A DNA stretch of 58,436 bases from Oscillospiraceae bacterium. GTDB lineage: Bacteria; Bacillota; Clostridia; Oscillospirales; CAG-272. Positions 1,807 to 20,085 of this stretch are shown here, piece by piece. Below the pieces are notes generated by a model. That model was given only the letters and a program-made list of their open reading frames with translations, was not told the DNA's origin and did no database searches. The position numbers were made by a program, and so were the translations under genes. Position 1 is the stretch's first letter; every line of letters begins with the position of its first letter. The stretch is from contig SVRG01000004.1 of the NCBI GenBank assembly GCA_015064965.1, positions 1 to 58,436 of the forward strand. Reading direction: 5' to 3'.

Positions 1807-1810
1807 TACG

Positions 1811-1836
1811 AAAGCCTCTCGCAACGAGAGGCTTTT
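1811..1836 (+). terminator. Intrinsic terminator
   Basis: AAAGCCTCTCG-CAA-CGAGAGGCTTTT hairpin directly after the stop codon. Confidence 0.8.
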
Positions 1837-1856
1837 GTTATACTGAAATCTGTGCC

Positions 1857-1950
1857 TTTTCCTTACACTTGGTAGGATGCAAGACCGATGTTTGCCATGT
1901 TTTACTAAAAGCGATGGCGTTTAGCCATCGAGGCAAATTCTTATGCAACA
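1857..1950 (+). repeat. Degenerate copy of a tRNA-Asn-derived repeat with REP-like hairpins
   Basis: TTTTCCTTACACTTGGTAGGATGCAAGAC matches TTTTCCTTACACTCGGTAGAGCGCATGAC at 13879. A TTTGCC..GGCAAA stem encloses the hairpin CGATGGC-GTTTA-GCCATCG, and the GGCAAATTC..CAACA tail is shared with 14100-14118. Confidence 0.6.
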
Positions 1951-1972
1951 TTAAGTCTTTTATCCGATCACA

Positions 1973-3352
1973 TTAGTGGTCGGATTTTTTGTTTGTGACG
2001 ACAGAGTTATCAGTATTTTTAGTGGGCGATACTTTTAGCGTCAGATATAAAATCATGGTAAATACTGCACTCGCAGAGCAGGATGCGAGCGAGCTAAGCC
2101 AAACTCCGTTCAGCTTTAAAAAAGGCGTCATAATAAACAGGGCTGCTATAGGAAAGACAAGTGTACCGAAAAATGATGTAAACATTGAGCGCACCGGTCT
2201 CTCGAGTGCAGTAAAATATGAGGAAAGACACATATCCACCCAGCCGGTAATATAGGAAAGCGCAAACAATTTCATTGCGGTAATGCTTACAGTCAATAGT
2301 TCGGTATCTTCAGGTTTTATAAAGAGCGGTGCTACATACGGACCTGCAAAGAACATAAACAGTAAAGATGCGACTGACAGCACGATTGCTCCTAAAATAA
2401 CATGCCTGAGTATTGCTTTTACTTTATCTATGAGCCCTGCGCCATAGCAATAACTTATAGCAGGTTGCAAAGAATCAGCCATACCGAATACAAGCATTCC
2501 AACAATACTGTCTACATACATAATAACTGAGAATGCCGCAACAGCAGTTGTTCCGCCGTATTTTAACAAGAAGAAATTAAACACGATAGACATTATTGAC
2601 ATAGATATACTACTGAAAAATTCGCTGGAGCCGTTGACAAGAATGCGAAAGAAAACCGATTTTTTAATATTACCTTTGACGTAATACAAATCCATACGCT
2701 TTTTTCGGAACATAAAAAGAGTGATAACTGAGCCGAGAGCCATTGCAAGGCAGCTTGTAAATGCAGCCGCCCAAACTCCTTGACCGAGGAAGACAATCAG
2801 TATTACATCAAGAACAATATTCATCCCTTGCGTCAAAATGCTCAGCCACATAGAAAGGTTTTCCTTGCCGCAAACACGAAGATAGTTATCCGTTGCATGG
2901 TATATGAGCATAAGCGGTGCGAAAGCGGCATAGATACGGGTATAGGTGATGCCATATTCGATTGACAGTTCTGTAGCGCCGGGAGCTAAGAATCGCACAA
3001 AACTGTCGGTAAATGCAAGACCTAAAACACCGAGCAAACATGAAATCAAGAAAATAACTTTAAGCGTAAAAGTGAAAACTTTTGATGCTTCTTCTTGTTT
3101 TTTCTCGCCGAGCAGCACGGCAATACGCACTGATGCTCCGGTTGCAATCAGGTTGGCAAAGCCGAAAACAATCATAATAATAGGCATAATCAGGTTAACC
3201 GCAGCAAGGGCGTCGCCGCCGATAAAGCGACCTACAAACACCCCATCAGCGATTTGATAGAGTGCACCAAATGCCATTGTGATCATAGAAGGTACCGCAC
3301 AGCGAAAAAATAATTTCGATGGTGGTAGCGTTTCAAAAATCCTTGAATCCAT
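1973..3352 (-). CDS. MATE family efflux transporter (MepA-like)
   Basis: About 12 hydrophobic segments; motifs LYQIADGVFVGRFIGGDALAAVN and QPAISYCYGAG. Start moved to the ATG at 3352, which follows a GGAGG RBS. Confidence 0.92.
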   Translation of the reverse strand: MDSRIFETLPPSKLFFRCAVPSMITMAFGALYQIADGVFVGRFIGGDALAAVNLIMPIIMIVFGFANLIATGASVRIAVLLGEKKQEEASKVFTFTLKVIFLISCLLGVLGLAFTDSFVRFLAPGATELSIEYGITYTRIYAAFAPLMLIYHATDNYLRVCGKENLSMWLSILTQGMNIVLDVILIVFLGQGVWAAAFTSCLAMALGSVITLFMFRKKRMDLYYVKGNIKKSVFFRILVNGSSEFFSSISMSIMSIVFNFFLLKYGGTTAVAAFSVIMYVDSIVGMLVFGMADSLQPAISYCYGAGLIDKVKAILRHVILGAIVLSVASLLFMFFAGPYVAPLFIKPEDTELLTVSITAMKLFALSYITGWVDMCLSSYFTALERPVRSMFTSFFGTLVFPIAALFIMTPFLKLNGVWLSSLASCSASAVFTMILYLTLKVSPTKNTDNSVVTNKKSDH

Positions 3353-3359
3353 AATAACC

Positions 3360-3525
3360 TCCAAAAAACAAAAAAGCCCAGCAACGCTAAAAAGCGTAAC
3401 CGAGCTCACTCGACATCTTATCTGACAGGCGGCCTGCAAGCAGTTGCTTACGATCCCCTACACTACGGTGTACTGTCCTCCGATGACTTTTTACATATTA
3501 TAGCACGAGCAGATACATAAGTCAA
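3360..3525 (-). promoter_or_regulatory. Sigma-A promoter plus structured ~135-nt 5' leader ending in an intrinsic terminator (candidate attenuator or riboswitch)
   Basis: Minus strand TTGACT-17-TATAAT (3525-3497). Hairpins TACAC-CGTA-GTGTA and GTAAGC-AACT-GCTTGC. Terminator AGCTCGGTTACGCT-TTTT-AGCGTTGCTGGGCT-TTTTT just before the RBS. Confidence 0.65.
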
Positions 3526-3530
3526 TAGTT

Positions 3531-3619
3531 ACTGTTAATCATGATGACGCTGGTAGACGTTTCGCAAAGCGAAACTCTGCACGGTTGCGTAGCAGACGTT
3601 GCGAGCGTCCAGCAGGGGA
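3531..3619 (+). repeat. tRNA-Asn(GTT) 3' half with a 55-nt multi-hairpin segment in place of the T-loop
   Basis: ACTGTTAATCATGATG anticodon arm. T-stem GCTGG (3549-53) / CCAGC (3609-13) is intact and followed by AGGGGA. The loop contains GTTTCGC-AAA-GCGAAAC and other hairpins. Confidence 0.7.
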
Positions 3620-3694
3620 TTTACAACGGTAGCAGCGGTGTGGTATAATAAAGCCAAAAGTTTGATTAATTGGAATTTGACGGGTGATTTTGAT

Positions 3695-4198
3695 ATGGGT
3701 ATTATTATTGAAAAGGCAACTTTTGAAGATGCGGCCGAGATCCTGCATTATCTAAAACAGATAGGTATAGAAACAGATAATTTGACATTCGGTGCAGAAG
3801 GGCTGCCGATTACAACAGAATCAGAAGCGGCATACATTAGTCAAATTGAAAACTCTTGTGATGAAATTATGCTTATCGCAAAAGAGAATGGAAAAATCGT
3901 TGGAAATGCAAGTCTAAGTCGCTTGCCGCGACGAATGAAGCACCGAGGAGATTTTAGTGTATCTGTTCTGAAGGAGTACTGGAACAAAGGTATTGGAAGT
4001 CAGTTGTTACTTGAAGTGATCAATTTTGCTAAAGAGAATTCATTTGAAGTAATTGACTTGCAAGTTCGTAGTGACAATTTGTCGGCAATACATTTATATG
4101 AAAAGTTTGGTTTTAAGAAAATAGGAATGCACCCTGCTTTCTTTAAGATTGGTTGTGAAGAAATATCTTTTGATTATATGTACTTAAAGATACAGTAA
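3695..4198 (+). CDS. GNAT family N-acetyltransferase
   Basis: Acetyl-CoA motif SVLKEYWNKGIGSQLL and N..AIHLYEKFGF. Start moved to the ATG at 3695; TGGTATAAT extended -10 at 3651-3659. Confidence 0.9.
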   Translation: MGIIIEKATFEDAAEILHYLKQIGIETDNLTFGAEGLPITTESEAAYISQIENSCDEIMLIAKENGKIVGNASLSRLPRRMKHRGDFSVSVLKEYWNKGIGSQLLLEVINFAKENSFEVIDLQVRSDNLSAIHLYEKFGFKKIGMHPAFFKIGCEEISFDYMYLKIQ

Positions 4199-4225
4199 AT
4201 CAAATTCCAATATGGCTAACAGAAA

Positions 4226-4272
4226 GACTGTTAATCATGATGTCACAGGTTCGAGCCCTGTTCGGGGAACCA
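4226..4272 (+). repeat. tRNA-Asn(GTT) 3' fragment (att-like remnant, not an intact tRNA)
   Basis: GACT-GTT-AATCATGATGTC-ACAGG-TTCGAGC-CCTGT-TCGGGGA-A-CCA: anticodon loop, perfect T arm, acceptor 3' strand and CCA. No 5' acceptor strand or D arm upstream. Confidence 0.85.
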
Positions 4273-4275
4273 TGA

Positions 4276-4302
4276 AAAGCCTTGTATTTACAAGGCTTTT
4301 TT
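4276..4302 (+). terminator. Hairpin after the tRNA fragment
   Basis: AAAAGCCTTGTA-TT-TACAAGGCTTTT followed by further Ts. Confidence 0.6.
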
Positions 4303-4467
4303 CCATTTTTATGGCATGACTGTTGAATAAGTGAGAGGCTTGTTTTATGGGCGCTACTAACATCATTTTTAAATCAAATTTCTGCTGGACTTCTCCTAAA
4401 CCTTGTGGTATAGTGTTGCGTTGCAAGGAGGTGCAACACTATGAAGCACAGAAAACAACAAGTGAAG

Positions 4468-4562
4468 AAACGACCGTATTACCGGGGACATTACATCTCG
4501 GTGATGCGGTCGTTTTGATATAATAAGGAAGAGAATGGTAGAAAGATGATACTTGAAGAATT
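4468..4562 (+). repeat. ~95-bp direct repeat, copy A (hairpin + RBS + start of a DUF6809-like gene)
   Basis: AAACGACCGTATTACCG..CGGTGATGCGGTCGTTTT..AAGGAAGAGAA..AGAAAGATGATACTTGAAGAATT is nearly identical to 19995-20085. Confidence 0.85.
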
Positions 4563-4646
4563 ATGGTACGGAATCATCGGGAATTATTCAAATATGGATT
4601 TAGACTCGGATGCAGGATTATATTAGAGGTGACAGAAGTACGGTGA
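4546..4646 (+). pseudogene. Internally deleted DUF6809-like gene
   Basis: N-terminus MILEELWYG and, in another frame, C-terminus ELFKYGFRLGCRIILEVTEVR*. Both match DUF6809 ends as recalled; the middle of the gene is missing. Confidence 0.6.
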
Positions 4647-4670
4647 AGCATGCAAAGAGAACGAGAAAAT

Positions 4671-4704
4671 AAACAGAAGCCTTGCGTCTGCAAGGCTTCT
4701 GTTT
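4671..4704 (-). terminator. Terminator of the DeoR gene
   Basis: AAACAGAAGCCTTGC-GTCT-GCAAGGCTTCTGTTT abutting the stop codon. Confidence 0.75.
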
Positions 4705-5494
4705 ATTCACACTCAACAACGATGAGTTCTGTTTTGGTGTTTTCAAGTACTTTTAATATATCGTTTGGAACAGGGTTTTTATTATCGGTGATAATGCGGT
4801 CAAAGTCGGAGAGCCTTGCATACGTGCAGGTGGATTTTTTGCCGAGCTTAAAGCTTTCTACAAGCAGTACCGAAACCGCAGAGCGCTTTGCAACACGGGA
4901 GAAATATGCGCTATCGGTAGGGAGATATACAGATGCACCCTCGGCAGAAAGAGCGGTGCAGGAACAGATAGAAAGGTCAAAAGTATAGGTGTCAAGCACG
5001 TCCGTTGCGGCATTTCCTATAAGGCTGACAGTTTTTAGACAAAGTTCTCCGCCGGTCATAATAACGTTGCCGCTTATTTCACCGAGTCTGATTTTATCTG
5101 CAAGTTCTTCGGCAAGTGAAAGCGAATTTACAACGAAGGTGACATCGTTTAGTCCCGACAGTAGACTTGTCATTGTTGTTATTGATATTCCACGTGTAAG
5201 CGCAACAACCATATTGCTATGAAACATATTTGCAGCTTCATTACATATTGCAAGTCTTTCTGTTTGATTGTCGCTGTTTTTTCGCAGATATTCTTTCTCT
5301 TTTCTATAGGGAAGTTTTATAGCAGAAGCGCCGCCACGCACTTTTTTGAGAAGGTTTTTCTCGCTTAAGACGTTAATGTCACGGCGGATAGTTTCATCGG
5401 AAACGTCGAGCGCAGCAGCCGCCTCTAAAATAGAAACCGAGCCGTTTTTTTTGATAGCGTTTAATATATACTGATGTCTTTCTTCTGCACGCAT
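4703..5494 (-). CDS. DeoR/GlpR family transcriptional regulator
   Basis: HTH VSDETIRRDINVL..KVRGGA; C-terminal sugar-phosphate sensor domain (TGG, ESFKLG, FDRIITD). Start moved to MRAEERH after an AAAGGAG RBS. Confidence 0.93.
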   Translation of the reverse strand: MRAEERHQYILNAIKKNGSVSILEAAAALDVSDETIRRDINVLSEKNLLKKVRGGASAIKLPYRKEKEYLRKNSDNQTERLAICNEAANMFHSNMVVALTRGISITTMTSLLSGLNDVTFVVNSLSLAEELADKIRLGEISGNVIMTGGELCLKTVSLIGNAATDVLDTYTFDLSICSCTALSAEGASVYLPTDSAYFSRVAKRSAVSVLLVESFKLGKKSTCTYARLSDFDRIITDNKNPVPNDILKVLENTKTELIVVECE

Positions 5495-5544
5495 GTGTAA
5501 TTCTCCTTTTATATTATCTCTTGATTTGATTTTATAACATATTT

Positions 5545-5640
5545 TTGTGGTTTTCAATAGCAAAACCACAATTATCACCTATTTTTATAAAAAAACAAAC
5601 AAATCGCCTTTGGAAAAATAAAAAATACCACAAAACCACA
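5545..5640. promoter_or_regulatory. Candidate DeoR operator repeats in the divergent intergenic region
   Basis: Inverted repeat TTGTGGTTTT-7-AAAACCACAA (5545-5571) plus tandem ACCACAAAACCACA (~5627-5640). Confidence 0.45.
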
Positions 5641-5744
5641 CAATTTTTCGTCAAAAGGGAGAAAGGGAAGTCAACCACTTGAAAGCGATTTTTATAAAAA
5701 ATATAATAGAATTGGCGAAGAATTAATCAAAGGAGAACTATAAA

Positions 5745-6509
5745 ATGAAAGTGCTTTTAGTAGTGGTAGACGGAATGCGTCCTGATGCAATGGTGCAGAT
5801 TCCGAAAGCCCGTGAACTTATGAAAAAAGCAACGTATACACTAAACGGAAGAACTGTGTTTGTATCGGCGACTCTGCCTGCACATATGTCGCTATTCCAT
5901 AGTGTAGATACGGAAAGGCACGGAACAATACTTAATTCCTTTGTTCCGCAGGTTCGTCCTATAAATGGACTTAGCGAGGTGCTCAAGGCAAACGGAAAGA
6001 GCAGTGCCTTTTTTCACACGTGGGAGCTTTTGCGTGACTTGAACCGCCCCGGCTCTGTTGACTTTTCTTATTTCTATGCGGCAAAGGTTGTTGGATTTGA
6101 AAGGGCAAACAGCATTGTTACAGATGCCGCCATAAAGCACATATCGGAGTGGCACACGGATTTTGCATTCTTGTATCTCGCCAATACAGATACCGCCGGT
6201 CACAAATACGGATGGATGAGCAAGGAATATATGGAGTCAATGGCAGAAGCATTTGATAACATTGAAAGAATAATGCAAACTCTCGATAATGATTGGTCAG
6301 TAATTATCGTGTCCGACCACGGCGGAAATGGAAGACATCATGGCACGGATTCTAAGGAAGATATGACCATTCCGCTAATGTTTATAGGCAAGCCTTTTGA
6401 AATGGGAAAAGAACTTGAAACGGTAAGCATTAAAGACGTTGCGCCTACAATAACAACGCTCTTTGGTATTGAGCCTGACGAAGACTGGGAAGGAAAAAGC
6501 ATTATATAA
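5745..6509 (+). CDS. Alkaline phosphatase superfamily protein (nucleotide pyrophosphatase/phosphodiesterase-like)
   Basis: VVDGMRPD, catalytic Thr in SATLPAH, TDTAGH, SDHGG, HG, DVAPTI. No signal peptide. Confidence 0.88.
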   Translation: MKVLLVVVDGMRPDAMVQIPKARELMKKATYTLNGRTVFVSATLPAHMSLFHSVDTERHGTILNSFVPQVRPINGLSEVLKANGKSSAFFHTWELLRDLNRPGSVDFSYFYAAKVVGFERANSIVTDAAIKHISEWHTDFAFLYLANTDTAGHKYGWMSKEYMESMAEAFDNIERIMQTLDNDWSVIIVSDHGGNGRHHGTDSKEDMTIPLMFIGKPFEMGKELETVSIKDVAPTITTLFGIEPDEDWEGKSII

Positions 6510-6532
6510 ATATTATTTAAGGAGAAAAAACA

Positions 6533-8278
6533 ATGAAAAAAAGTACAATTGGTATCTTGCTTGTTTTTGTTTGCGCATGCATCTTCACCTGCGTTGCATT
6601 TGCGGCGGAAGACTGCATGACGTTTCAAAACTATGGCATTTACAAAACAGAGGAGCCGCTTGATGTGATTCCTGCAACTTATGAGGCATGGGTAAAAATC
6701 CCCGAGGGACGAACCGCTTCTTCAGGAATTGTTATGTCTAATGCACACTCGAGTGTGTATCCGTCATTCAGTATTTATGTATATACAAACGGCGCACCTA
6801 TCTTGAAATTTTTGAATAAGACTTCGGACGGGGATTACAGAGAGCAGAAAACATATACTTTTAGCAAAGTAAACCTTGCAACTGGAAAATGGGAACATCT
6901 TGCTTTTGTTCATGATACTGAAAGTGGATATGTTTACTGTTATGTAAACGGTGAACTTGCAGAAACACAGAAAATCTCATTTGAACCCATACTTTCACCT
7001 ATTCCTTTTGTGCTCGGTGGATCTGATACTTCCGGCAACGAGGATTATTTTAAGGGAGCTTTACGTAGCGCAACTCTTTATTCTGATGCTCGCTCTGCTG
7101 ATGAAATTAAAGCCGATATGGTATCGGTTGATGTGACTGACGAAAATCTTTTGGTGCATTATGATCTTACAAAGGCCGAGTGGGGAAAGGACATTCCCGA
7201 TGTGGCAGGCAATCAGGATATGATTTACAATCAATATTGGTATGACGAGGCACCTGCACTTCCCGAATACGCATATTCCATTGCGGTAATCGGTGACCAA
7301 CAGACACAGCTTTACAGATTTTCTGACACACTTCACTTTACATACGATTGGCTGCTCGCAAACAAGGATACAAAGAAAATCGGTTACGTTGTAAACGTAG
7401 GTGACTATACGCAGACGATAGCAGGAAAAACATCAGAATTTGAACTTGCAATTTCGCAATTTAAACGCCTTGCCGGAAAACTTCCTTTAATCGTAGCAAG
7501 AGGTAATCACGATTTACCCGCATATCACAATCAGTATTTGAATTATACGGGTTATACTTCGGATATTGTCGGAAAATATAATGACGAACTTGTTGATATT
7601 TATAAGACTGCGAGAATAGGCGATACGGACTATCTTTTTATCACTTTGGATTATGGACCTACTGATGAAGAAATTGCATGGGCGAACAAAGTTACCGAAG
7701 AGCATCCAAATCATAAGGTTATTGTCGTAACACATAGTTATATGTGGGAAGATGGCACTACTACCGATGAAAATGATGGAGCATCTCCTTCTTTGCACGG
7801 TTATCCTAACAATGGAAAAACACTTTGGGAGAAGTATGTTTCAAAGCACGAAAATATCGTGCTTGTGCTTTCGGGACATATTGATTCCGACTTTATCCGT
7901 GCTACCAAGGCGGTTGGCGAGAATGGCAACGTTGTTACACAAATGCTTATAGATCAGCAGGGTGTTGACCTTGATGTGCCCACAGGTCTTGTTTGCATGC
8001 TCTATTTCAGCGAGGACGGTAATATTGTAAATACACAGTATTATTCTACTGTGAGAAGACAGTATTTCCGCATTGAAGATAACAACTATACAATGTATCT
8101 CGGCGAGCGTAGCGGAGATTGCAACGGCGACGGTACTATTACCGTAGCAGATGCAATTGCGGCAATTTCGTCGGCAATGGGAGGCGAGATAAATAAGAAT
8201 GCAGACGTTAACGGTGACGGAAAAGTTACCTTAAATGATGCACTTGTCATCATGCAGACGGTGGCGAAAGGAGAATAA
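6533..8278 (+). CDS. Secreted LamG + metallophosphoesterase + dockerin protein (paralog of 1-1806)
   Basis: Signal peptide ending AFA; WEHLAFV..YVNGE LamG segment; GDQQ, GDY, GNHD, VTHS, SGH; dockerin loops GDCNGDGTITVADA and DVNGDGKVTLNDA. Confidence 0.88.
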   Translation: MKKSTIGILLVFVCACIFTCVAFAAEDCMTFQNYGIYKTEEPLDVIPATYEAWVKIPEGRTASSGIVMSNAHSSVYPSFSIYVYTNGAPILKFLNKTSDGDYREQKTYTFSKVNLATGKWEHLAFVHDTESGYVYCYVNGELAETQKISFEPILSPIPFVLGGSDTSGNEDYFKGALRSATLYSDARSADEIKADMVSVDVTDENLLVHYDLTKAEWGKDIPDVAGNQDMIYNQYWYDEAPALPEYAYSIAVIGDQQTQLYRFSDTLHFTYDWLLANKDTKKIGYVVNVGDYTQTIAGKTSEFELAISQFKRLAGKLPLIVARGNHDLPAYHNQYLNYTGYTSDIVGKYNDELVDIYKTARIGDTDYLFITLDYGPTDEEIAWANKVTEEHPNHKVIVVTHSYMWEDGTTTDENDGASPSLHGYPNNGKTLWEKYVSKHENIVLVLSGHIDSDFIRATKAVGENGNVVTQMLIDQQGVDLDVPTGLVCMLYFSEDGNIVNTQYYSTVRRQYFRIEDNNYTMYLGERSGDCNGDGTITVADAIAAISSAMGGEINKNADVNGDGKVTLNDALVIMQTVAKGE

Positions 8279-8280
8279 TA

Positions 8281-11200
8281 ATGCGTAGAATAATATTTTC
8301 AATATGTATTTTTGCACTTGCAGTTTCGCTTTCACTTTTTGCAGGTGCGGCTCAAATAGGCAGTGCTGATGAACTGCTCACGCTTATGAACACGCCTGCT
8401 ATGTGGGCAAATGATTATACGCTTACCGCAGATATAAATCTTTCGGATGCCACAAACGGACTTTCGCAAGCACCTATCGGCAGCGAGAGTATACCGTATA
8501 GCGGCACCTTTGACGGTGACGGCTATACAATAAGCGGCATCAATATCAGCGGTGCCGGAAATGTTGCATTGTTCGGTTTCGCAGGCGGCGCAACTATTAA
8601 GAATTTGACGGTAGACGGCACAGTTTCTTCTACTACCAACTGGGCGGCGGGTATTATTGCAAGAGTTTCGGCGGCAAGTATTACTGTAGAAAACTGTGTA
8701 AACCGTTGTACAGTAAGCGGCGTTGACTCTGTCGGCGGCATCGTGGGCAGACTTGAGCCAGGCTCACTAAACGCTACTATAAGCGGTTGTAAAAACGAAG
8801 GCACAATTACTGCTGCCCGTTACAGTGGCGGTATTGTGGGCTTCAGCTCACAGACAAGCGGTGCTACTGTTATTGAAAAATGCTGGAATGACGGTATTGT
8901 TAACGGTACACAGGGCGTAGCCGGTATTGTCGTATTTTTCAGAGTATATACAGGTTCAAGCGGCAAGTGTTATGTGCAGGACTGTATAAACACAGGTAAA
9001 GTTCATGCGACAACTGCATACGCAGGCGGTATTCTTGGCTGGGGACACAACAAGAATTTTGCATATACGGTAACACGTTGCTTTAACGGCGGTTCTGTTA
9101 CTTCTGATAAGGCATCATATGTTCGTCCGATAGCAGGAGTTATTTCCAAGGCGACCTATACCGCCGGTAACATGAACGCTTGCTACTACACAACTACCGA
9201 TGCATATACCTCCGAGAGCGATTGCTATGCAAATCTCTGTGAAACTTTTGTTGCAGATGCAACTGTAGCGACCACACTCACAGGACTTGGCGAAAACTTT
9301 GTAGTTGCTGATGGCTATGCACCTCAGCTTAAAAACTTCCATACACATGACTATAAATACAGCGCTATAGGCGCAGAGCATGAGTACGCTTGTTATTGCG
9401 GCGATGTTTCTCTTACAGAGGAACATACCTTTGTTGACGGCGTGTGCGATAAGTGCGGAGCCGAGGACATTCCTTGTGCGCACGATAACAAGTACGAGAT
9501 TGTTGAAAATGCAGCAACTTGCGCTTCGGTAGGCAGCAAATATGAATTTTGTCCCGATTGCCAAACCAAAGTGAGCGGAGATATTGAAATTGCTATTGAT
9601 GCAAATAATCATAGCGGCACTTTGACTATGGTGCTTGAAAACGGTGCACTTACATATATCTGTTCGGATTGTGATGCAGCAGCGTATACAGACAGTGCAC
9701 TTCTTGACACAGTTTATGTTTCACAAACCGGTGCAGAGCTTAAAGGAAACGTTTCGTCACAGATCGGTACAAGTGCAAATCCTTTCAAAAACTTTACCGA
9801 TGCTATGCAGTATGCGGCACTTGTGGGTAAGGATGTAACCGTTACAATTCTGGATACTGCAGAGGTTCCTGAAAAATATCATACGCCCGAATTTGAAAGC
9901 ACTGTTACTGTAACGGGCGGCACGCTTATTACGCATACCCGTTTCATAATGCACGGACCGATGGTGTTTGAGCATATTTGCTTTAAGGACAGCGGCAATC
10001 CCTTTATTGCGGCTCAGGAACACAAAGTCGTAATGGGAGAGGGAATCACCGTTTCAGGCGGAGGTATTTATCTTGTAGGCGGCTACGAAAACGGAACTGC
10101 CACGAACAGCGATATTCCCTCTACAGGATATTCCACGGATGTAACTGTACGCTCAGGTGTGTATCACGGAATTGCAGGTGCAAACCGTTATCTTGGCGGT
10201 GCATATTCCGGTACAGTCAAAGTAGTTCTTGGTAAGACTAACCCGAGTGATACACTTAAAATTACAAGCACTCTTGCTGTAGTAGGATTTAATTCCGAGG
10301 GCGGAGATGGTGTAAATGCAACGTTCATCTTTGAAGGTAACGTAGATGAGATTGCAAGTTTTTGCCCGATAAGCCATGCGAGCAATGCAACAGGTCGCTT
10401 TGATATTGATATCGTTGTACGCGGCGGTGCTGCTTTGGATAAAACCAAAGTCATCTATCGTGGAGCCAATGCGACTGTTAACGTGTATTCCGATTCCCGC
10501 ATAGAGGGTGCGGATGAACTTGCGGCAACTATAACGGATGCAGATAAAGTTCAGCCTTACAAACGCTATTGCCTCAAAGTAAACGGAGAGCATCCGGATG
10601 CAAATTCAGACGGTATTTGTGATAATTGCGGCGCTTCTACCGCTTGTGAGCATATTGACGGCGAGTGGCAGGAAACCATGTCGGCAAACTGTGCAGATAA
10701 GGCTGTTTATACCTGGTATTGCTATGACTGCAAAGAACTTGTCAATGACATGACCAAAGAGGGCGAAGCTCCCGACGCTGACAATCATGTAGCAGATAGT
10801 TTTGTATGGAACAATGACGGCGAAAAGTATTACTTTGTCTGCAATTCTTGCGGTGCCAAAGTGGAACAGACCGATGCTCCTTCGGTTTATGTATCTTCAA
10901 GCGGCAGTGATAAAAATGATGGCAGAACTGCAGAAAAAGCAGTGAAGACGCTTGCAGAAGCAGTAACGCGCATTGCAAATGTTGGTGGCAAGATTGTAAT
11001 TGTTTCCAACTACACTCTTGATGGAGACGTTGTACTTCCTGCATATACAAAGCCTATTTCTTTTGTTGGCTACGATGCAGATGACGGATATGTTCCCGGC
11101 GGTTTTACGGCATCGGCAAATGTTGTAATTTCTCTCGGCGGCAAAACAAGCTTCGAGGATATCACATTTGCAGGCGGCAAGCGTTATACAATCGTTGCAA

Positions 11201-12663
11201 ATTGGAACGACATCACTTTTGGAAGAGTTTATTCGTTAAGCGATTCATATTCCTATGTTGTTCTTGGCGGATACCCGATAACCGAGAGTGACAATGAGGC
11301 AAAGTCGGCTACACTTACAATTAAAGAAGATGTAACCCGTGCACGCACGCTTGACGGAACGGTTACAAGAGACCGTTTCTATACACGCATTTATCTCGGA
11401 AGCGTTTTCGGTGCTGATAATATCGGCGTTGCAAATAAGAGTGCTACACTTACTGCCACAAATGCAGATATCGGTGTGCTTTATACAATGTCTACATCCG
11501 GCTCGCATAAGCTTACCACAGCAAAAAACTGTGAAACTACAGTAAATCTTTATGGCAGAGCAACTGTAAATCAGGGTAGAACCGGCGACTACAACGTGGC
11601 GTATGCTACATCTAAGGGTTCACAGAAAAACTTAACATTGAATTTGTTTGATAATTCCGCAATTCTTACGAATTATTATATTCGAAACTGCGAGAATACT
11701 GTAATCAACGTTTCCACCAAGGCTGACGGAAGAACATTTATGATTGATATTCCGTTTACCTTCTATGCATTCGGCGACTTTGCGGCAAACGGTACGGCTA
11801 TTAATGTTGAAATCAACTACGGTGAGCACGGTTTTGCTCCTTCACTTGATACGCCTTGTGTGTTTGTCGATTCGGCAGATGAAATTAAGATTTATGAGGC
11901 TAATGCTGTCGAGGAGTGCGAATACGTTGAGAGTATAGCTCATGCGGCAACTCCAAAAGAAAAAGGAATGAAGCATTATTCCTGCACTTGCGGTAGATAC
12001 TACGATGAAGAATATGAGTATTCCTGCGAAGAAGCAACGCACATTTATACTGCATATGCAGACGGTACTTTTAAGTGCTCTGTATGTGAGAAAACCTTTA
12101 CAACACTCAGCGAAAATCTTGTTGTTAAAGCAACTTCTATAGCGGTTGCTGACGGAAAAGCAAGTGTAAATGTAAATATTACCGGTACATTTGCGGCAGC
12201 ACTTGTAAGTATTACTGCTCCTGAAGGATTTGAGCTTGCAGATGCAACACTTGCTGAAAATGCAGAACTCGTGTTTGCAGGCAATGAAGCAGACAGTGAA
12301 TATTATCTCACCGTTATGAGTGCGAGCGGTGCAGATAGAGAAATTAACGAAACGTTTGTTTTAACATATTCTGTGGCTGATTCCACTGCATATGGAAGTT
12401 ATATTCTTGACGTTGTTGCATCAGAGGTTTACAATGCAACCGGTGAAGCGCTTTGTATGACTCCCGTAAGTGCGGAAATCGTATATGCAGAAGAAACAGT
12501 TATAGGAGATGTGGACGGTGACGGTATTGTTACAGTTGCAGATGCTCTTGCAATTATCAGAGCATTGCTTGATGATATCAGTTTGCCTAATGCAGATCTT
12601 AACGGCGACGGCAAATTAGGTCTTTTCGATGTAATCAGAGCAATCAAGTTAATAGCGCAGTAA
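8281..12663 (+). CDS. Large secreted multidomain protein: GLUG/beta-helix repeats, Cys/His ribbons, cohesin-like module, dockerin
   Basis: Signal peptide; FDGDGYTISG and VGGIVG/CxNxG repeats; two VYVS..G..G....P.K beta-helix caps; CxH..CxxC linkers; beta-rich module at ~12115-12486; dockerin from 12505. Confidence 0.8.
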   Translation: MRRIIFSICIFALAVSLSLFAGAAQIGSADELLTLMNTPAMWANDYTLTADINLSDATNGLSQAPIGSESIPYSGTFDGDGYTISGINISGAGNVALFGFAGGATIKNLTVDGTVSSTTNWAAGIIARVSAASITVENCVNRCTVSGVDSVGGIVGRLEPGSLNATISGCKNEGTITAARYSGGIVGFSSQTSGATVIEKCWNDGIVNGTQGVAGIVVFFRVYTGSSGKCYVQDCINTGKVHATTAYAGGILGWGHNKNFAYTVTRCFNGGSVTSDKASYVRPIAGVISKATYTAGNMNACYYTTTDAYTSESDCYANLCETFVADATVATTLTGLGENFVVADGYAPQLKNFHTHDYKYSAIGAEHEYACYCGDVSLTEEHTFVDGVCDKCGAEDIPCAHDNKYEIVENAATCASVGSKYEFCPDCQTKVSGDIEIAIDANNHSGTLTMVLENGALTYICSDCDAAAYTDSALLDTVYVSQTGAELKGNVSSQIGTSANPFKNFTDAMQYAALVGKDVTVTILDTAEVPEKYHTPEFESTVTVTGGTLITHTRFIMHGPMVFEHICFKDSGNPFIAAQEHKVVMGEGITVSGGGIYLVGGYENGTATNSDIPSTGYSTDVTVRSGVYHGIAGANRYLGGAYSGTVKVVLGKTNPSDTLKITSTLAVVGFNSEGGDGVNATFIFEGNVDEIASFCPISHASNATGRFDIDIVVRGGAALDKTKVIYRGANATVNVYSDSRIEGADELAATITDADKVQPYKRYCLKVNGEHPDANSDGICDNCGASTACEHIDGEWQETMSANCADKAVYTWYCYDCKELVNDMTKEGEAPDADNHVADSFVWNNDGEKYYFVCNSCGAKVEQTDAPSVYVSSSGSDKNDGRTAEKAVKTLAEAVTRIANVGGKIVIVSNYTLDGDVVLPAYTKPISFVGYDADDGYVPGGFTASANVVISLGGKTSFEDITFAGGKRYTIVANWNDITFGRVYSLSDSYSYVVLGGYPITESDNEAKSATLTIKEDVTRARTLDGTVTRDRFYTRIYLGSVFGADNIGVANKSATLTATNADIGVLYTMSTSGSHKLTTAKNCETTVNLYGRATVNQGRTGDYNVAYATSKGSQKNLTLNLFDNSAILTNYYIRNCENTVINVSTKADGRTFMIDIPFTFYAFGDFAANGTAINVEINYGEHGFAPSLDTPCVFVDSADEIKIYEANAVEECEYVESIAHAATPKEKGMKHYSCTCGRYYDEEYEYSCEEATHIYTAYADGTFKCSVCEKTFTTLSENLVVKATSIAVADGKASVNVNITGTFAAALVSITAPEGFELADATLAENAELVFAGNEADSEYYLTVMSASGADREINETFVLTYSVADSTAYGSYILDVVASEVYNATGEALCMTPVSAEIVYAEETVIGDVDGDGIVTVADALAIIRALLDDISLPNADLNGDGKLGLFDVIRAIKLIAQ

Positions 12664-12667
12664 AATT

Positions 12668-12697
12668 AAAGCATCAAGCCATATGGCTTGATGCTTT
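12668..12697 (+). terminator. Bidirectional terminator, copy 1 of a duplicated hairpin
   Basis: AAAGCATCAAGCCA-TA-TGGCTTGATGCTTT; near-identical copy at 12859-12887. Confidence 0.8.
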
Positions 12698-12858
12698 AGC
12701 GTGTTGAAGAAGTGTTCTACACTCATAATATAATAAATTATGTTTTAGAGACGGACATGTGCCGGCTTTAAAACTCCTTAAAAACCGCGAGCGGTGAGCG
12801 AGTCGCGAGACTTGCGGTTTTGTATCCTGTCGAAAAACTTTAGTTTTTCGACAGACTG
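12698..12858. mobile_element. MITE-like non-autonomous element (IS1182-like ends) inserted at a terminator
   Basis: 161 bp flanked by a duplicated ~28-bp hairpin. Imperfect terminal IRs AGCGTGTTGAAGAA / TTTTTCGACAGACTG; subterminal palindrome CTGTCGAAAAAC-TTTA-GTTTTTCGACAG; no transposase ORF. Confidence 0.6.
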
Positions 12859-12888
12859 AGCATCAAGCCTTACAGCTTGATGCTTTTA

Positions 12889-13551
12889 CTATCTATTGAT
12901 AAGTTTCAAGAGTGTTTCACCTTCTGCTATGTATTCGGTGGCAATACCATGGATTTTGTCCTGCCCGAAATTGTGACGGTCATATATACCGACAGTTGGC
13001 ATACCGATTTTTGCAGCCGTTTCAATAGCGGTAAGCGAGTCTTCAAATACCCATGTTTCACAAGGCTTTTCTTGTAAGAACTTGCAAGCGTGTAAATAGA
13101 TATCCGGCTCCTCTTTGCCTTTGCCGATGGTTGCGCAGGAGAATATCGCTTCAAAGTATTTACCGATGCCGAGATGCTCAATAGCAGTGCTTAACAGGTC
13201 GGGAGCGGTTGCCGTGGCGAGGCACATTTTTACACCGTTTGTTTTACAGTGATTTAAAAACTCTAAAACACCGTCTTTAAGTGCAACTTTGTTAGCATAA
13301 AAGTCGTTCGTGATGCTATTTGCAAGTGTTAATAATTCTTCACAGCTTTCGCCGAGCCCATAATTTGTATGAATTAAATCCATAGCATCTCTCAAAGTGA
13401 GGGTACGCACTTTCTTGTTATCTTCGGGAGAAGGCTCGAATTTTTTATTGTTTAAATATTTATCGCCGAAAGCAGACCATAGCATATCCCACAGCATCAA
13501 AGAGTCGATGAGTGTGCCGTCCATATCAAATATCGCCGCTTTAAATTTCAT
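12889..13551 (-). CDS. HAD superfamily phosphatase (beta-PGM/CbbY-like)
   Basis: Motif I FDMDGTLIDS, motif II LATA, motif III K..PDIY, motif IV FEDS. Start moved to MKFKAAIF after GAGG. Confidence 0.92.
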   Translation of the reverse strand: MKFKAAIFDMDGTLIDSLMLWDMLWSAFGDKYLNNKKFEPSPEDNKKVRTLTLRDAMDLIHTNYGLGESCEELLTLANSITNDFYANKVALKDGVLEFLNHCKTNGVKMCLATATAPDLLSTAIEHLGIGKYFEAIFSCATIGKGKEEPDIYLHACKFLQEKPCETWVFEDSLTAIETAAKIGMPTVGIYDRHNFGQDKIHGIATEYIAEGETLLKLINR

Positions 13552-13677
13552 GTCGTTAACCTCATAGTCTGTATTGCAATTATTATACCATGCTTGCCTG
13601 CCGGTGTAAACGTCTAATGACATGATTGGGTGCTTTAGTGTTGCTTTTATTGACTTTTGCGACAATTTAAAGCAAGA

Positions 13678-13846
13678 TACATGTATAGAGAAGAACCGGA
13701 TCCCGACAGTAAGATGCCTGACAGCGGCTGGAGATTTTTTTGCCGGTGATGAAAATGACGAATATGTAAATGACCCAGATAATATAGGACTTTATTCATT
13801 AAATACGATAGCAAATTATGACAAAGATATAATTGTTGACGAGTGA
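13678..13846 (+). pseudogene. Frameshifted fragment of a DUF2185 (immunity-like) domain gene
   Basis: YMYREEPD..DSGWRFF, then a +1 shift in a T7 run (13735-13741) to AGDENDEYVNDPDNIGLYSLNTIANYDKDII. Matches the DUF2185 signature as recalled; both ends are missing. Confidence 0.65.
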
Positions 13847-13878
13847 AGTAAACAAACCACTGTTTTAGTTATTGTGTG

Positions 13879-14037
13879 TTTTCCTTACACTCGGTAGAGC
13901 GCATGACTTGAGTTTTCCAGTTTCGCTTTGCGAAATCGTCGGTGTTCAGCCGACGAAGGATAAACTCACAATGCGTCGCATAGCGACGCTATGTTGATAC
14001 ATGATGTCGCTGGTTCGAGCTCACGCTCGGGGAGCAA
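13879..14037 (+). repeat. Near full-length tRNA-Asn-derived element with an 84-nt hairpin insert in the anticodon loop
   Basis: ..CACTCGGTAGAGCGCATGACT | insert 13909-13992 | GTTGATACATGATGTCGCTGGTTCGAGC..TCGGGGAGCAA. The insert is a TGAGTTT..AAACTCA stem enclosing TTTCGC-TTT-GCGAAA and CGTCGG..CCGACG, plus GCGTCGC-ATA-GCGACGC. Confidence 0.75.
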
Positions 14038-14155
14038 GGCGACTCCGGCGACCATCTAAAACAATCTTCATATTCCGTCGCCTACTGAATTTGCCTTGCG
14101 GCAAATTCCTTTACAACATATGTGATATGTGATATCTGACATTTATTTGGAGCTT

Positions 14156-15022
14156 TTAATGTTCTTTTTCAAACCATTCTACGGCAAAGTTGATTAGTCT
14201 CATTGTAACTTCGCTTGGCTCGTATTCTTTCGGCCATGAAATATAGATGGAACGCTGAAGATTGAAATCACTAAGCGGAAGAGAAACAATTCCATCCTGC
14301 TGCACAGAACACCATGAAATTTCGGGATAGAAAGCAATTCCAAAGCCGCCCTTGACAAATTCGCTGACCGTGGCACGGTTTTCGCTTTCTGCAATAATAT
14401 CAGGCGAATACTCATTTGCCCCAAAATAAGATTGCATCAGTCTATACAGTTTGCTTCCGTCAAAAAGACCTATGACAGGGATTCCTCTTATGTCATCGAT
14501 GCATAATTCGGTTTTGCTTGCAAGCGGATCGTCAGCCGAAACCGCCACGAATATTCTCTCTTTGAAAAGCACCTTGGAATGATAATTCTCCTCTTTTTCA
14601 AAAGGCTTTGAAGATACAAGTACATCGAAAAAAACGTTTCCCTTGGCTCTGTCCGATTGCTTTGAAAAAGTAAAATCTATATCGGGATTTTGCCTTCTGA
14701 ATGCCGCAATTACAGGGATAGCGGCAGTGGCACCTTCCAACATTGATATGCGTATAGAGGCGTGCTGTTTCTTTTTGATAAGTTCTTTCCCTTTTTCAAG
14801 CTTGGTGAGGGACGCACTTACCTCGTTGAAAAATACCTTACCCGCTTCGTTTAAAAGCACCTTGTTGCCGCTGCGTGTGAAGAGTTTTATGCCGAGCTCA
14901 TCCTCAAGTCTTGAAATAGTATGGCTCACCGATGAAGGAGGAACCATGTAAAGCTCTGCCACTTTTGAGAAATTTTCCAAAATTGCCGCATCTTTAAAAT
15001 AATTAAGCTGTAAAAGTTCCAT
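14156..15022 (-). CDS. LysR family transcriptional regulator
   Basis: MELLQLNYF..NFSKVAE..PSSVSHTISRLEDELGIKLFTR HTH; C-terminal PBP2 domain; divergent from the 15138 operon. Confidence 0.95.
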   Translation of the reverse strand: MELLQLNYFKDAAILENFSKVAELYMVPPSSVSHTISRLEDELGIKLFTRSGNKVLLNEAGKVFFNEVSASLTKLEKGKELIKKKQHASIRISMLEGATAAIPVIAAFRRQNPDIDFTFSKQSDRAKGNVFFDVLVSSKPFEKEENYHSKVLFKERIFVAVSADDPLASKTELCIDDIRGIPVIGLFDGSKLYRLMQSYFGANEYSPDIIAESENRATVSEFVKGGFGIAFYPEISWCSVQQDGIVSLPLSDFNLQRSIYISWPKEYEPSEVTMRLINFAVEWFEKEH

Positions 15023-15137
15023 TTTGCGTCCTCACTATGACTTTGTTTACATAGTATTATACAATATCGTGTTGTTGATTTCAATATCTTCTTGTAATAA
15101 AATATAATTGTAAACAATATTTATTCAGGAGGACATT

Positions 15138-19962: not shown

Positions 19963-19994
19963 ACTGCGCACCGTTTAAAAAACACAGAATAAAC

Positions 19995-20085
19995 AAACGA
20001 CCGTATTACCGGATACAATTTCGGTGATACGGTCGTTTTAATATAACAAGGAAGAGAAGGGCAGAAAGATGATACTTGAAGAATT
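19995..20085 (+). repeat. ~91-bp direct repeat, copy B; its hairpin probably serves as terminator between the convergent genes
   Basis: Matches 4468-4562. The DUF6809-like start (MILEEL) is cut off at the LuxR stop codon. Confidence 0.85.

Follow-up and report, generated by a model that had tools for sequence, protein, structure and literature searches.

The window examined in this study is a 58,436-nucleotide stretch of an Oscillospiraceae bacterium genome (contig SVRG01000004.1 of assembly GCA_015064965.1), and its plus strand between positions 1857 and 14118 carries four intergenic pieces that resemble tRNA-Asn(GTT). What process would leave fragments of a tRNA gene between unrelated genes, and why are two of the copies interrupted by hairpins? 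The original prediction was a dispersed, tRNA-derived family, either SINE- or REPIN-like or serving as a recombination handle, with hairpin repeats lodged in the tRNA loops. Our analysis retains the dispersed family, the handle and the hairpin repeat, but not the SINE and REPIN/RAYT identities. It seems probable that two things are superimposed at this locus, namely attachment-site scars of tRNA-Asn genes and copies of a small structured repeat. Hereafter, G000 denotes the genome that holds the window (80% complete), other G numbers denote other genomes, and C numbers denote contigs.

tRNA-Asn fragments mark the borders of accessory gene blocks

No tRNA is called within the window by ARAGORN, and the two true tRNA-Asn(GTT) genes of G000 (C37:45-120 and C139:252-327) both reside off the window's contig. 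All four pieces nevertheless match these two genes when compared by BLAST with a word size of 7. The pieces and the features that border them are as follows.

1857..1886, plus strand: degenerate 5′ remnant of a tRNA-Asn copy (BLAST to the copy at 13879)
1962..1985, plus strand: terminator-like hairpin between a junction module (see below) and the MATE gene
1973..3439, minus strand: MATE efflux gene, the cargo of one block (Pfam MatE, 5e-42)
3531..3619, plus strand: 3′ remnant of a tRNA-Asn copy, starting at the anticodon loop (BLAST, six-copy alignment)
3599..4198, plus strand: GNAT acetyltransferase cassette (Pfam Acetyltransf_1, 1e-19)
4226..4272, plus strand: clean 3′ half of a C139-type tRNA-Asn, positions 30-76 including CCA
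4273..4577, plus strand: C139-type tRNA-Asn terminator and a multi-copy downstream module with a small ORF
13879..13908, plus strand: 5′ remnant of a tRNA-Asn copy that has the altered 5′ end seen at 1857 (BLAST)
13993..14037, plus strand: 3′ remnant of a tRNA-Asn copy, starting at the anticodon (BLAST, alignment)
14038..14118, plus strand: downstream module ‘B’, formed by a long-range stem and a 9-bp hairpin

The fragment at 4226-4272 is 98% identical to positions 30-76 of the C139 gene (E 5e-13), and 3531-3554 matches tRNA positions 31-54 at 96% identity. The two parts of the 13879 copy are more diverged: 13882-13908 corresponds to tRNA positions 4-33 (87%), with the match extending to U33, and 13992-14035 corresponds to positions 33-74 (86%), with a broken T stem and an acceptor 3′ strand that lacks CCA. 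The fragment at 1857 has an altered 5′ end and continues through the D arm and the 5′ half of the anticodon stem, stopping at the anticodon loop. As proposed originally, its altered 5′ end is held in common with the 13879 copy (83% over 29 bases for 1857-1885), and it recurs at C138:3708-3745 (100% over 38 bases) and in five congeners (G002, G003, G004, G012 and G014). The 1857 fragment also lies directly 3′ of the orthologous gene in G002:C70, G012:C8 and G014:C55. BLAST and alignments thus reveal a dispersed, related family rather than four independent decays.

Further copies are plentiful, as evident by the 16 tRNA-Asn matches in G000. Among the 19 genomes compared, G002 and G010 likewise yield 16 each, G012 yields nine, G006 yields eight, and the remaining 14 congeners yield between zero and four. 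Fragment ends concentrate at tRNA positions 30-38 and 46-55, which are the anticodon-loop and T-arm zones. For these zones we invoke the two-sublocation scheme that Williams is said to have described in 2002. Upstream of true tRNA-Asn genes, the leader plus the first 30-55 tRNA bases is repeated in tandem (C139:1-251, G002:C57 and G010:C27), with almost nothing separating the units. The copies are 68-80% identical, and are therefore called old. Intact genes on other contigs of G000 largely explain the tRNA parts of the pieces as ordinary attachment-site scars, an explanation that does not extend to the inserts.

The original prediction also placed each piece at a border between unrelated accessory genes, and these borders prove to be breaks in synteny. 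The nearest congener carries the same gene blocks in a different order, and the breakpoints coincide with the tRNA-Asn pieces, which fits the reading of the pieces as recombination handles. Window positions 4-1876 correspond to G002:C70:3232-5110 (92%), where they are joined directly to the counterpart of 14002-14119 (90%). Positions 1962-3546 are found in G002:C71 (98%), 4665-13631 in G002:C46:19922-28699, and 14125-16000 in G002:C46:7830-9705, the last behind another tRNA 3′ half. In G014:C55 the flanks are the same, and a different small gene takes the place of MATE. The tRNA-Asn copy of G002 is without 8-9 bases of the anticodon arm. Window positions 1887 to about 13992 would constitute one composite inside a tRNA-Asn copy whose G002 counterpart is uninterrupted, but the difference between the two genomes could equally be a deletion in G002.

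The cargo of the blocks (GNAT, MATE, a methyltransferase, LysR-type regulators and thioredoxin) is typical island content, and Pfam reveals no mobility gene in the 12-kb stretch between the pieces. The GNAT cassette, with a likely ATG at 3695, is bounded by two tRNA-Asn 3′ pieces. The first of these (3531..3619) is placed between divergent, strong promoter-like sites (3525->3497 on the minus strand and 3620-3649 on the plus strand), each with 11 of 12 hexamer matches. Downstream of the second, 4273-4426 matches the C139-type terminator and downstream module at 92%; this module has eight matches in G000 and is multi-copy in congeners as well. Module ‘B’ (fold z -3.64) accompanies 3′ pieces of the 13993..14037 type, with copies at 81-86% in C37, C35 and C7 and at 91-92% in G002 and G006. 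The 33 bases at the hairpin 1962..1985 are identical in G002:C70.

Genes for a tyrosine integrase or a large serine recombinase adjoin tRNA-Asn pieces in two congeners, G006 and G010. A 395-amino-acid integrase and a Gp49-like ORF precede tRNA positions 35-76 in G010:C86, and the same pair plus a helicase precedes positions 29-75 in G006:C48. A 522-amino-acid serine recombinase precedes positions 12-76 in G010:C67. Relatives of these enzymes were not found by tblastn in the 80%-complete G000, whose only PF00589 matches are in C118 and C66, the latter beside tRNA-Ser. Given that congener breakpoints fall at the pieces and that recombinases sit beside such pieces, the fragments are best read as attachment-site scars.

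The inserts contain a covarying three-way junction

Two of the tRNA-Asn copies are interrupted, and related modules are located as follows.

1885..1948, plus strand: diverged three-way-junction module (covariance model R1, 61.5 bits)
3554-3608, plus strand: hairpin insert of 55 bases in the T-loop region (positions read off the sequence)
13907..13973, plus strand: three-way junction (R1, 73.3 bits)
13909/10-13992, plus strand: anticodon-loop insert of 83-84 bases (anticodon triplet at 13993-13995)
13973..13989, plus strand: fourth hairpin, P4 (alignment), present after the junction in almost every copy

At 3531 the 5′ strand of the T stem occupies 3549-3553 and its 3′ strand begins at 3609. 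The insert thus lies at the T-loop as predicted, though it had been described as a 55-nucleotide replacement. On our reading of the six-copy alignment, the final ~12 bases resemble a degenerate T-loop, and therefore the event seems to have been an insertion of ~45 bases just before a T-loop that was retained. The 84-nucleotide insert between U33 and GTT is borne out, as the tRNA match ends at 13908 and the anticodon resumes at 13993. A small hairpin is common to both inserts on opposite strands (22 bases, 95%), although its orientation can be told only by the 3-base loop because the stem is palindromic. The copies that we read have neither a target duplication at the tRNA-loop insertions nor the duplicated core around the junction insert that is expected of an integrase product.

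The junction at 13907..13973 is formed by P1 (13910-13918 with 13958-13967), P2 (13920-13936) and P3 (13937-13955), the last capped by a 5-base loop (13944-13948). The single-strand fold of 13899-14010 has a z of -4.87, with none of 200 shuffles as good. In the diverged module at 1885..1948, P1 pairs 1890-1896 with 1932-1938 and P3 pairs 1912-1918 with 1924-1930 (fold z -2.64), and an orthologous copy is present in G014:C55. Genome-wide E values with R1 for these two regions are 1e-13 to 1e-17. Among 38 distinct junction copies, 91.4% of cells are paired and 14 of 19 pairs have changed on both sides, a level reached by none of 500 shuffles, and slid controls are 38-53% paired. The same holds in other genera, where 32 distinct copies that had no part in building the model are 92.7% paired, with 17/19 pairs and 0/500 shuffles. 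Pairing is kept while the surrounding tRNA bodies decay, as evident by the broken T stems of the window copy, C7 and C99. This covariation is equally compatible with RNA function or with folded DNA.

The distribution of the junction confirms that the inserts are part of a hairpin repeat that is dispersed: the covariance model gives nine matches in G000, and of 151 genomes of the family, from 97 genera, 28 genomes in 23 genera have matches. Congeners carry from zero to 61 copies. In some of them the junction is the core of a ~200-base MITE-like unit present at 37-61 copies, and 21 aligned copies of this unit share sharp ends and have terminal hairpins that resemble each other in inverted orientation. 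No target-site duplication or exact empty site could be defined for this unit. A diverged junction lies 59-60 bases after true tRNA-Asn genes in G017:C14, G018:C45, G018:C50 and G001:C41 (twice), followed by a copy of the tRNA's tail from the T-loop to CCA. Another genus has the same layout after tRNA-Tyr, with four tandem units in G155:C19. Outside the genus, a tRNA gene lies within 1.5 kb of the best junction match in only 4 of the 22 genomes with a retrievable best match, two of these four being in one genus, so that association with tRNA amounts to a tendency rather than a rule.

Alternative explanations

The conserved fold invites the proposal that these loci are non-coding RNA genes, in which a tRNA-Asn-like body (leader, acceptor, D and T arms) serves expression, processing and stability and the anticodon-loop junction and T-loop hairpins are the functional RNA part. 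Full-length units do exist, in which a leader and a terminator of tRNA type enclose both inserts (C5:8091-8349, with a 93% counterpart in G012:C8:3668-3879 whose 7-bp acceptor stem is intact). Moreover, the junction covaries strongly, and the tRNA-linked copies that we read are all in the sense orientation to the tRNA, with G002:C70 as the sole exception. However, the C5 acceptor is mismatched, the tRNA body has decayed in most copies, and unrelated sequence replaces the 5′ end at 1857, 13879 and C138. The junction itself is mostly free-standing, being away from tRNA in 18 of 22 best matches and multiplied in the MITE-like units. The true tRNA and the unit downstream of it have a strong terminator between them, and no consensus promoter was found on the plus strand just upstream of 13879. 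We therefore view this proposal as the most credible rival, but an unlikely one. Slightly less credible is that no site-specific system was involved, and that one hairpin-bearing tRNA-Asn locus spread by segmental duplication, after which ordinary recombination between its copies, homologous or illegitimate, shuffled the neighbouring genes. The tandem leader units suggest unequal crossing-over more than element integration, and the age of the copies and the lack of a recombinase among G000 sequences agree with this. Yet the fragment ends gather in two zones instead of spreading along the gene, recombinase genes abut fragments in two congeners, and sequences only 68-80% identical recombine poorly by homologous recombination.

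Two further proposals concern mobile elements. An origin from REPIN/RAYT or IS200/IS605 (PATE-like) elements, with hairpin ends recognized by a single-copy Y1 HUH transposase and spread via single-stranded DNA into hairpin loops, would account for a conserved fold and loop whose stems are free to vary and for tRNA-loop insertions that lack target duplications. Single Y1_Tnp genes are indeed present in G017, G001 and G007. Nevertheless, we judge it quite improbable given that G007 has the Y1 gene but no junction copies, and G018 has 61 copies with no Y1 match at 74% completeness. Furthermore, no part of the repeat lies within ~1.5 kb of any of the four Y1 loci examined, and the aligned ~200-base units contain no inverted REP doublets. 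A SINE-like retroelement copied via RNA would also be tRNA-derived and dispersed, but it is highly improbable here. The copies are fragments that end at the anticodon loop or T arm in the manner of attachment sites, some include the non-transcribed leader, and those that we read carry neither A-rich tails nor target duplications.

Relationship to known mobile elements

Bacterial REP, BIME and MITE sequences, such as the BIMEs of E. coli and the BOX elements of pneumococci, are natural comparators for the junction repeat. Like them, it is short, non-coding, hairpin-forming and intergenic, is modular with modules that also occur alone, varies from no copies to tens among close relatives, and can form a ~200-base unit with inverted terminal hairpins. 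Unlike them, its core is a covarying three-way junction spread over 23 of the 97 sampled genera rather than a simple palindrome, it is repeatedly associated with the loops and tails of tRNA copies, and neither a RAYT link nor a target duplication was established. CIMEs (cis-mobilizable elements), defined by work on Streptococcus thermophilus, lie between att sites and derive from integrative elements, but have no integrase. The units described here are similarly bounded by copies of tRNA att regions, encode no recombinase and form tandem arrays next to the target gene (G155:C19 and G001:C41), but they span only about 110-175 bases and have a conserved fold instead of genes. IS1397, ISKpn1 and IS110-family members target the hairpin loops of REP/PU repeats. 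Entry into an inverted-repeat loop is a shared trait, as both the anticodon arm and the T arm form inverted repeats at the DNA level, although the unit inserted here is non-coding and is not linked to such a transposase.

The tRNA-Asn fragments more closely recall islands at tRNA genes. According to the two accounts consulted, displaced tDNA fragments mark island ends (Islander database, PMC4383910), partial tRNAs flank the tandem islands of tycheposon type (bioRxiv 10.1101/2020.12.28.424599), serial integration displaces older elements inward, and both tyrosine and large serine recombinases are in use (both sources). The likeness to these systems extends to partial tRNA copies that bound accessory blocks with several scars in series, to fragments that break off at the anticodon loop or the T arm, to congener fragments that adjoin either class of recombinase, and to the existence of integrase-less remnants. 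Our system differs in that G000 yielded no recombinase at 80% completeness, many blocks are single genes with their own promoter, and leader-bearing 5′ fragments are repeated besides 3′ fragments. A structured repeat within scar loops is likewise not mentioned in the texts consulted.

A model for the locus

We propose that the tRNA-Asn pieces are displaced fragments and decaying gene copies that arose in one subclade of the genus by site-specific recombination, and then rearrangement, at tRNA-Asn genes. Elements would recombine at the anticodon loop or the T arm and leave a cut gene copy at the border of a block. Serial events and recombination between copies may then have generated strings of small, self-promoted accessory blocks bounded by pieces. 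We infer that recombinases of the type found in congeners made the scars of G000. Such an island system with attachment-site scars is of a known kind.

The new part of the finding is the junction insert, which covaries strongly and whose core has no match in Rfam. In the repeat, a three-way junction whose five-base loop (GUUYA) is conserved is followed by one more hairpin. It presumably moves by itself as a non-autonomous unit, which a trans-acting enzyme would recognize in the form of a folded single strand, most likely DNA rather than RNA. This unit may tend to enter, or to travel with, the loops and tails of tRNA gene copies, and in some congeners it has been amplified as the core of the MITE-like unit. 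Many genera of the family share its fold, and it is this fold rather than the sequence of the stems that is conserved.

Pieces of tRNA-Asn genes in the window

The assembly of the source genome (G000; 2.06 Mb, 148 contigs, ~80% complete, 44% G+C) includes the window as one entire contig (C69), where encoded dockerin and SLH proteins suggest that the source is a clostridial bacterium that degrades fibre. ARAGORN identifies no tRNA genes within the window and two true tRNA-Asn(GTT) genes in the genome, at C37:45-120 and C139:252-327, distinguishable from each other by the T stem and a single acceptor pair. BLAST matches to these genes bear out the tRNA-Asn likeness of all four pieces named in the original prediction, which are built as follows.

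Pieces of tRNA-Asn(GTT) sequence in the window
1857-1886, + strand: same 5′ piece as in the copy at 13879, more degenerate, followed by a diverged counterpart of that copy's insert
3531-3553, + strand: tRNA positions 31-53, then a 55-base hairpin stretch, the T stem's 3′ strand and a portion of the acceptor
4226-4272, + strand: 98% identical to the C139 tRNA-Asn over its positions 30-76, running on into that gene's terminator and downstream module
13879-14037, + strand: D arm and 5′ strand of the anticodon stem to U33, an insert of 83-84 bases, then the anticodon and 3′ part

The hairpin insert between U33 and the anticodon of the last copy is present as predicted. The piece at 3531 likewise carries a hairpin insert, but this insert precedes the T-loop rather than replacing its seven nucleotides, as evident by the resemblance of the end of the 55-base stretch to a decayed T-loop. 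Compensatory change is seen in only one of the 22 predicted pairs of this T-loop insert among six copies, and its fold is therefore without covariation support. A GNAT gene lies between direct repeats formed by the pieces at 3531 and 4226, and a stretch of 12 kb is likewise enclosed by those at 1857 and 13879. Directly before the 13879 unit lies a 74-amino-acid ORF (13622-13846) that matches only positions 32-64 of the 87 in the Imm33 profile and is probably a gene fragment.

A dispersed family at the boundaries of accessory-gene blocks

The proposal that these pieces belong to a dispersed family holds within the source genome, where BLAST and a module map place further copies, with identities of 68-98%, on C5, C7, C35, C37, C99, C137, C138 and C139. 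Five copies (on C69, C37, C99, C7 and C5) carry the insert in the anticodon loop. The complete unit, C5:8091-8349, consists of a tRNA-type leader, both inserts and a tRNA-type terminator; C37:228-400 has the same build but a diverged insert type. Both intact tRNA-Asn genes reside on short contigs, where each is preceded or followed by the same modules, and contig ends separate both from the window. Because many of the contigs that bear copies are short, the data suggest that these repeats cause breaks in the assembly.

Tandem arrangements were also observed. At C139:1-251, two units composed of the leader and the first 30 bases of tRNA-Asn precede the true gene, and tandem units of the leader and 5′ part lie upstream of an intact gene in two congeners (locus L226 of G002:C57, 280-670; locus L218 of G010:C27, reverse strand). 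Among these three arrays, the units extend 30-55 bases into tRNA-Asn and are only 35-100 bases apart. A separate multi-copy module, at 4315-4577 and also at 19979-20085, follows the C139-type tRNA-Asn terminator and includes a small ORF with its own promoter-like site; the 4315-4577 module has eight matches in the source genome (C139, two on C5, C79, C108, C6 and two in the window) and several in congeners.

A 251-base query from the window matches 18 of 41 genomes, the source included, and 16 of 18 congeners; the sample also contains six genomes from other genera of this family, none of which is matched. Matches to tRNA-Asn are most numerous in G000 and the congeners G002 and G010 (16 each), followed by G012 (nine) and G006 (eight), and number 0-4 in the other 14 congeners. 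Among the fragments listed for 19 genomes, the ends are concentrated at tRNA positions 30-38 and 46-55, which are the anticodon-loop and T-loop zones.

That the pieces lie at the boundaries of accessory blocks is supported by comparison with the nearest congener, G002, with which synteny is broken at them. The counterpart of window positions 4-1876, comprising the gene that ends at 1806 and the 5′ tRNA piece, is joined directly on G002:C70 to the counterpart of 14002-14119, and the blocks between 1876 and 14002 are found in G002 on other contigs or in a different order. In the congener G014, a different small gene takes the place of the MATE gene between unchanged flanks. These presence/absence differences from G002 and G014 fall exactly at tRNA-Asn fragments and could reflect either gain or loss.

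Ahead of the MATE gene is a conserved leader of ~180 bases (3350-3530, − strand) with a strong promoter-like site (3525 to 3497) and a terminator-like hairpin. A 91% copy in G014:C55 precedes a different small gene, and the leader has no Rfam match. It may be an attenuator or riboswitch candidate. A different three-hairpin repeat, of ~130 bases, lies at 12725-12857 between a gene for a 1460-amino-acid dockerin protein and a HAD gene; it is numerous in two congeners, G013 and G006, with several of the G006 copies at contig ends, and the source genome has four partial copies on other contigs.

The tRNA parts as probable attachment-site scars

The tRNA parts are best read as attachment-site scars of integrative elements, a known kind, because recombinases beside tRNA-Asn fragments in congeners match the pattern of tRNA-linked genomic islands as outlined in PMC4383910. 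The tandem islands of the tycheposon type, as outlined in bioRxiv 10.1101/2020.12.28.424599, are matched likewise. In such islands, partial copies of the target tRNA form direct repeats around the inserted DNA, as is also seen in the window. Such islands are also expected to have a recombinase beside the fragment, which is seen in congeners G010 and G006 but not in the source genome. Specifically, a 395-amino-acid integrase and a Gp49-like ORF adjoin a tRNA-Asn 3′ fragment at G010:C86, the same pair is separated from a fragment by a helicase gene at G006:C48, and a 522-amino-acid serine recombinase adjoins a fragment at G010:C67. The source genome, at ~80% completeness, yields four recombinase-type profile matches (two to PF00589 and two to PF00239, resolvase), none of which adjoins a tRNA-Asn piece, and no close homologue of the three proteins tested from beside the congener fragments, the integrase and the serine recombinase among them.

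The cargo, which includes GNATs, a methyltransferase, a C26 peptidase, LysR, TetR and AraC regulators, a thioredoxin and a barnase-like RNase domain, is of the island type and therefore also fits attachment-site scars. The tRNA scars need no new mechanism. The blocks of the window type differ from typical integron cassettes in having their own promoters, and no integrase was found at the cassette-like arrays examined. The cassette whose protein has the barnase-type ribonuclease domain (Pfam PF00545, 1.5e-11), on C37 (locus L001, 830-1366, − strand), is flanked by two tRNA-Asn-like units and has a small ORF beside it.

A three-way junction maintained by compensatory changes

When aligned, the anticodon-loop inserts form a three-way junction in which P1 encloses P2 and P3; a fourth hairpin comes next. 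A covariance model of this junction (R1), built from 21 copies, has nine matches in the source genome. Of the 151 family genomes searched, 28 are matched, representing 23 of 97 genera, often several times per genome and at times in tandem. Among 38 distinct junction copies, 91.4% of cells are paired and 14 of 19 pairs have changed on both sides, while none of 500 shuffles scores as high and slid partners are only 38-53% paired; the 32 distinct copies from other genera, which took no part in model building, give 92.7% paired, 17 of 19 pairs and again none of 500 shuffles, both alignments having been fitted to R1 and hence being biased towards its structure. Pairing in P3 reaches 99%, and the five bases of its loop hardly vary.

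Searches of Rfam 15 at the gathering score returned no matches in the window, and a search with E up to 1, covering eight loci and window positions 1-15200, recovered the two true tRNAs and otherwise no more than weak, unrelated matches. No such repeat is described among the papers listed in literature searches on miniature inverted repeats of Oscillospiraceae and on tandem tRNA fragments and islands of Firmicutes, our sole literature basis. Thus the junction repeat and its habit of occupying tRNA loops are not described in the papers and catalogues searched. A sequence-pattern search of contigs matched at least 119 stretches, of which none of the 80 loci examined fits R1, as the pattern was too degenerate. 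A separate pattern search of viral contigs gave one match, which lies within a long ORF with no junction around it and is attributable to chance.

Amplification and placement of the junction in other genomes

In the congeners G018, G017 and G001, the junction sits centrally in a unit of ~200 bases that has sharp boundaries and is made of hairpin modules that also occur singly. BLAST matches to this unit number 45, 54 and 33, respectively, and R1 identifies 61, 37 and 15 junction copies. In 21 aligned copies, the unit is MITE-like in its length and copy number, in its sharply defined ends and in the inverted orientation of its terminal hairpins. Neither a target-site duplication, which a MITE would be expected to have, nor an exact empty site could be defined for the unit. 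One spacer of 494 bases in G018 corresponds to 146 in G017 and 121 in G015, and these are too diverged for the borders to be placed. The strand bias of 28 copies relative to flanking ORFs has no clear pattern, the crude ORF calls being unreliable in GC-rich DNA. In contrast to the whole MITE-like unit, the window copies represent its core module only. The junctions of the source genome are exclusively low-copy and diverged, and seven of the nine lie within or beside tRNA-Asn-like sequence.

In G017, G018 and G001, five tRNA-Asn genes each have a diverged junction 59-60 bases downstream, followed by a hairpin, a copy of the tRNA tail from T-loop to CCA, and a terminator; in G001, such units of junction and tail copy are tandem. 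A genome of another genus (G155:C19, locus L235, 130-830) has the same layout behind tRNA-Tyr, with four tandem units of ~175 bases in which two junction variants alternate. By eye, the stems of these variants differ by compensatory changes, and the linker, fourth hairpin and tail copy are nearly identical. Further junctions lie near tRNA-Gly, tRNA-Pro and tRNA-Ser genes. The link is not general beyond the genus, as a tRNA gene lies within 1.5 kb of the best junction match in four of the 22 non-congener genomes whose best match was examined, and not in the other 18.

Ahead of the junction, a mirrored copy of the tRNA tail was also considered as a candidate feature. This candidate is weakly supported, as evident by the fact that 8-27 of 300 shuffles reach its score in four of ten junction-linked cases and that the other six are no better than shuffles; the signal derives partly from a terminator arm that pairs with the tRNA end.

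How the junction might spread

The original prediction of a SINE- or REPIN-like element or a recombination handle is, as a whole, partly supported. A SINE-like retroposon is not supported by the nature of the copies, which are gene fragments, some with the upstream leader, and no A-rich 3′ tails occur in the tRNA-Asn copies read. Mobilization in the manner of REPINs by a Y1_Tnp (RAYT-type) transposase fares no better, since none of four Y1 loci holds the repeat; G007 has a Y1 gene but no junction copies, and G018 has its 61 copies but no Y1 match. An origin of the junction as an integrase product is disfavored because its borders have no duplicated core. Near the junction in other genera, none of 18 flanking ORFs scanned encodes an integrase. 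From the lineage-specific amplification, the sharp ends of the unit, its modular build and the conserved loop with free stems, we infer that the junction is a non-autonomous unit recognized as a folded single strand of DNA. Alternatively, the units could encode a tRNA-scaffolded RNA, a reading that we regard as improbable.

We also offer a broader proposal that is speculative and, on balance, rather doubtful. The junction and its hairpin would constitute undescribed, gene-less mini-elements defined by structure, which would home to tRNA gene copies, specifically to their loops and 3′ tails. The folded single-stranded unit would be recognized by a recombinase acting in trans, and the portable recombination sites seeded in this way would permit single-gene cassettes to be gained, lost and reshuffled on tRNA copies in gut Clostridia, in the fashion of integrons.

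The tRNA pieces alone are ordinary, and they mark tRNA-Asn genes as a hot spot for the exchange of small accessory genes in these gut or rumen Clostridia. The main point is the insert, a small fold kept by compensatory changes in roughly one in four of the genera sampled from a large family of anaerobes. If the junction is a mobile recombination signal, it would explain the movement of cassettes that have no integrase and would give annotators a marker of variable regions. If it functions as RNA, it would represent a new and widespread RNA family. Under either reading, an explanation is available for the assembly breaks and pseudo-tRNA calls of these genomes.
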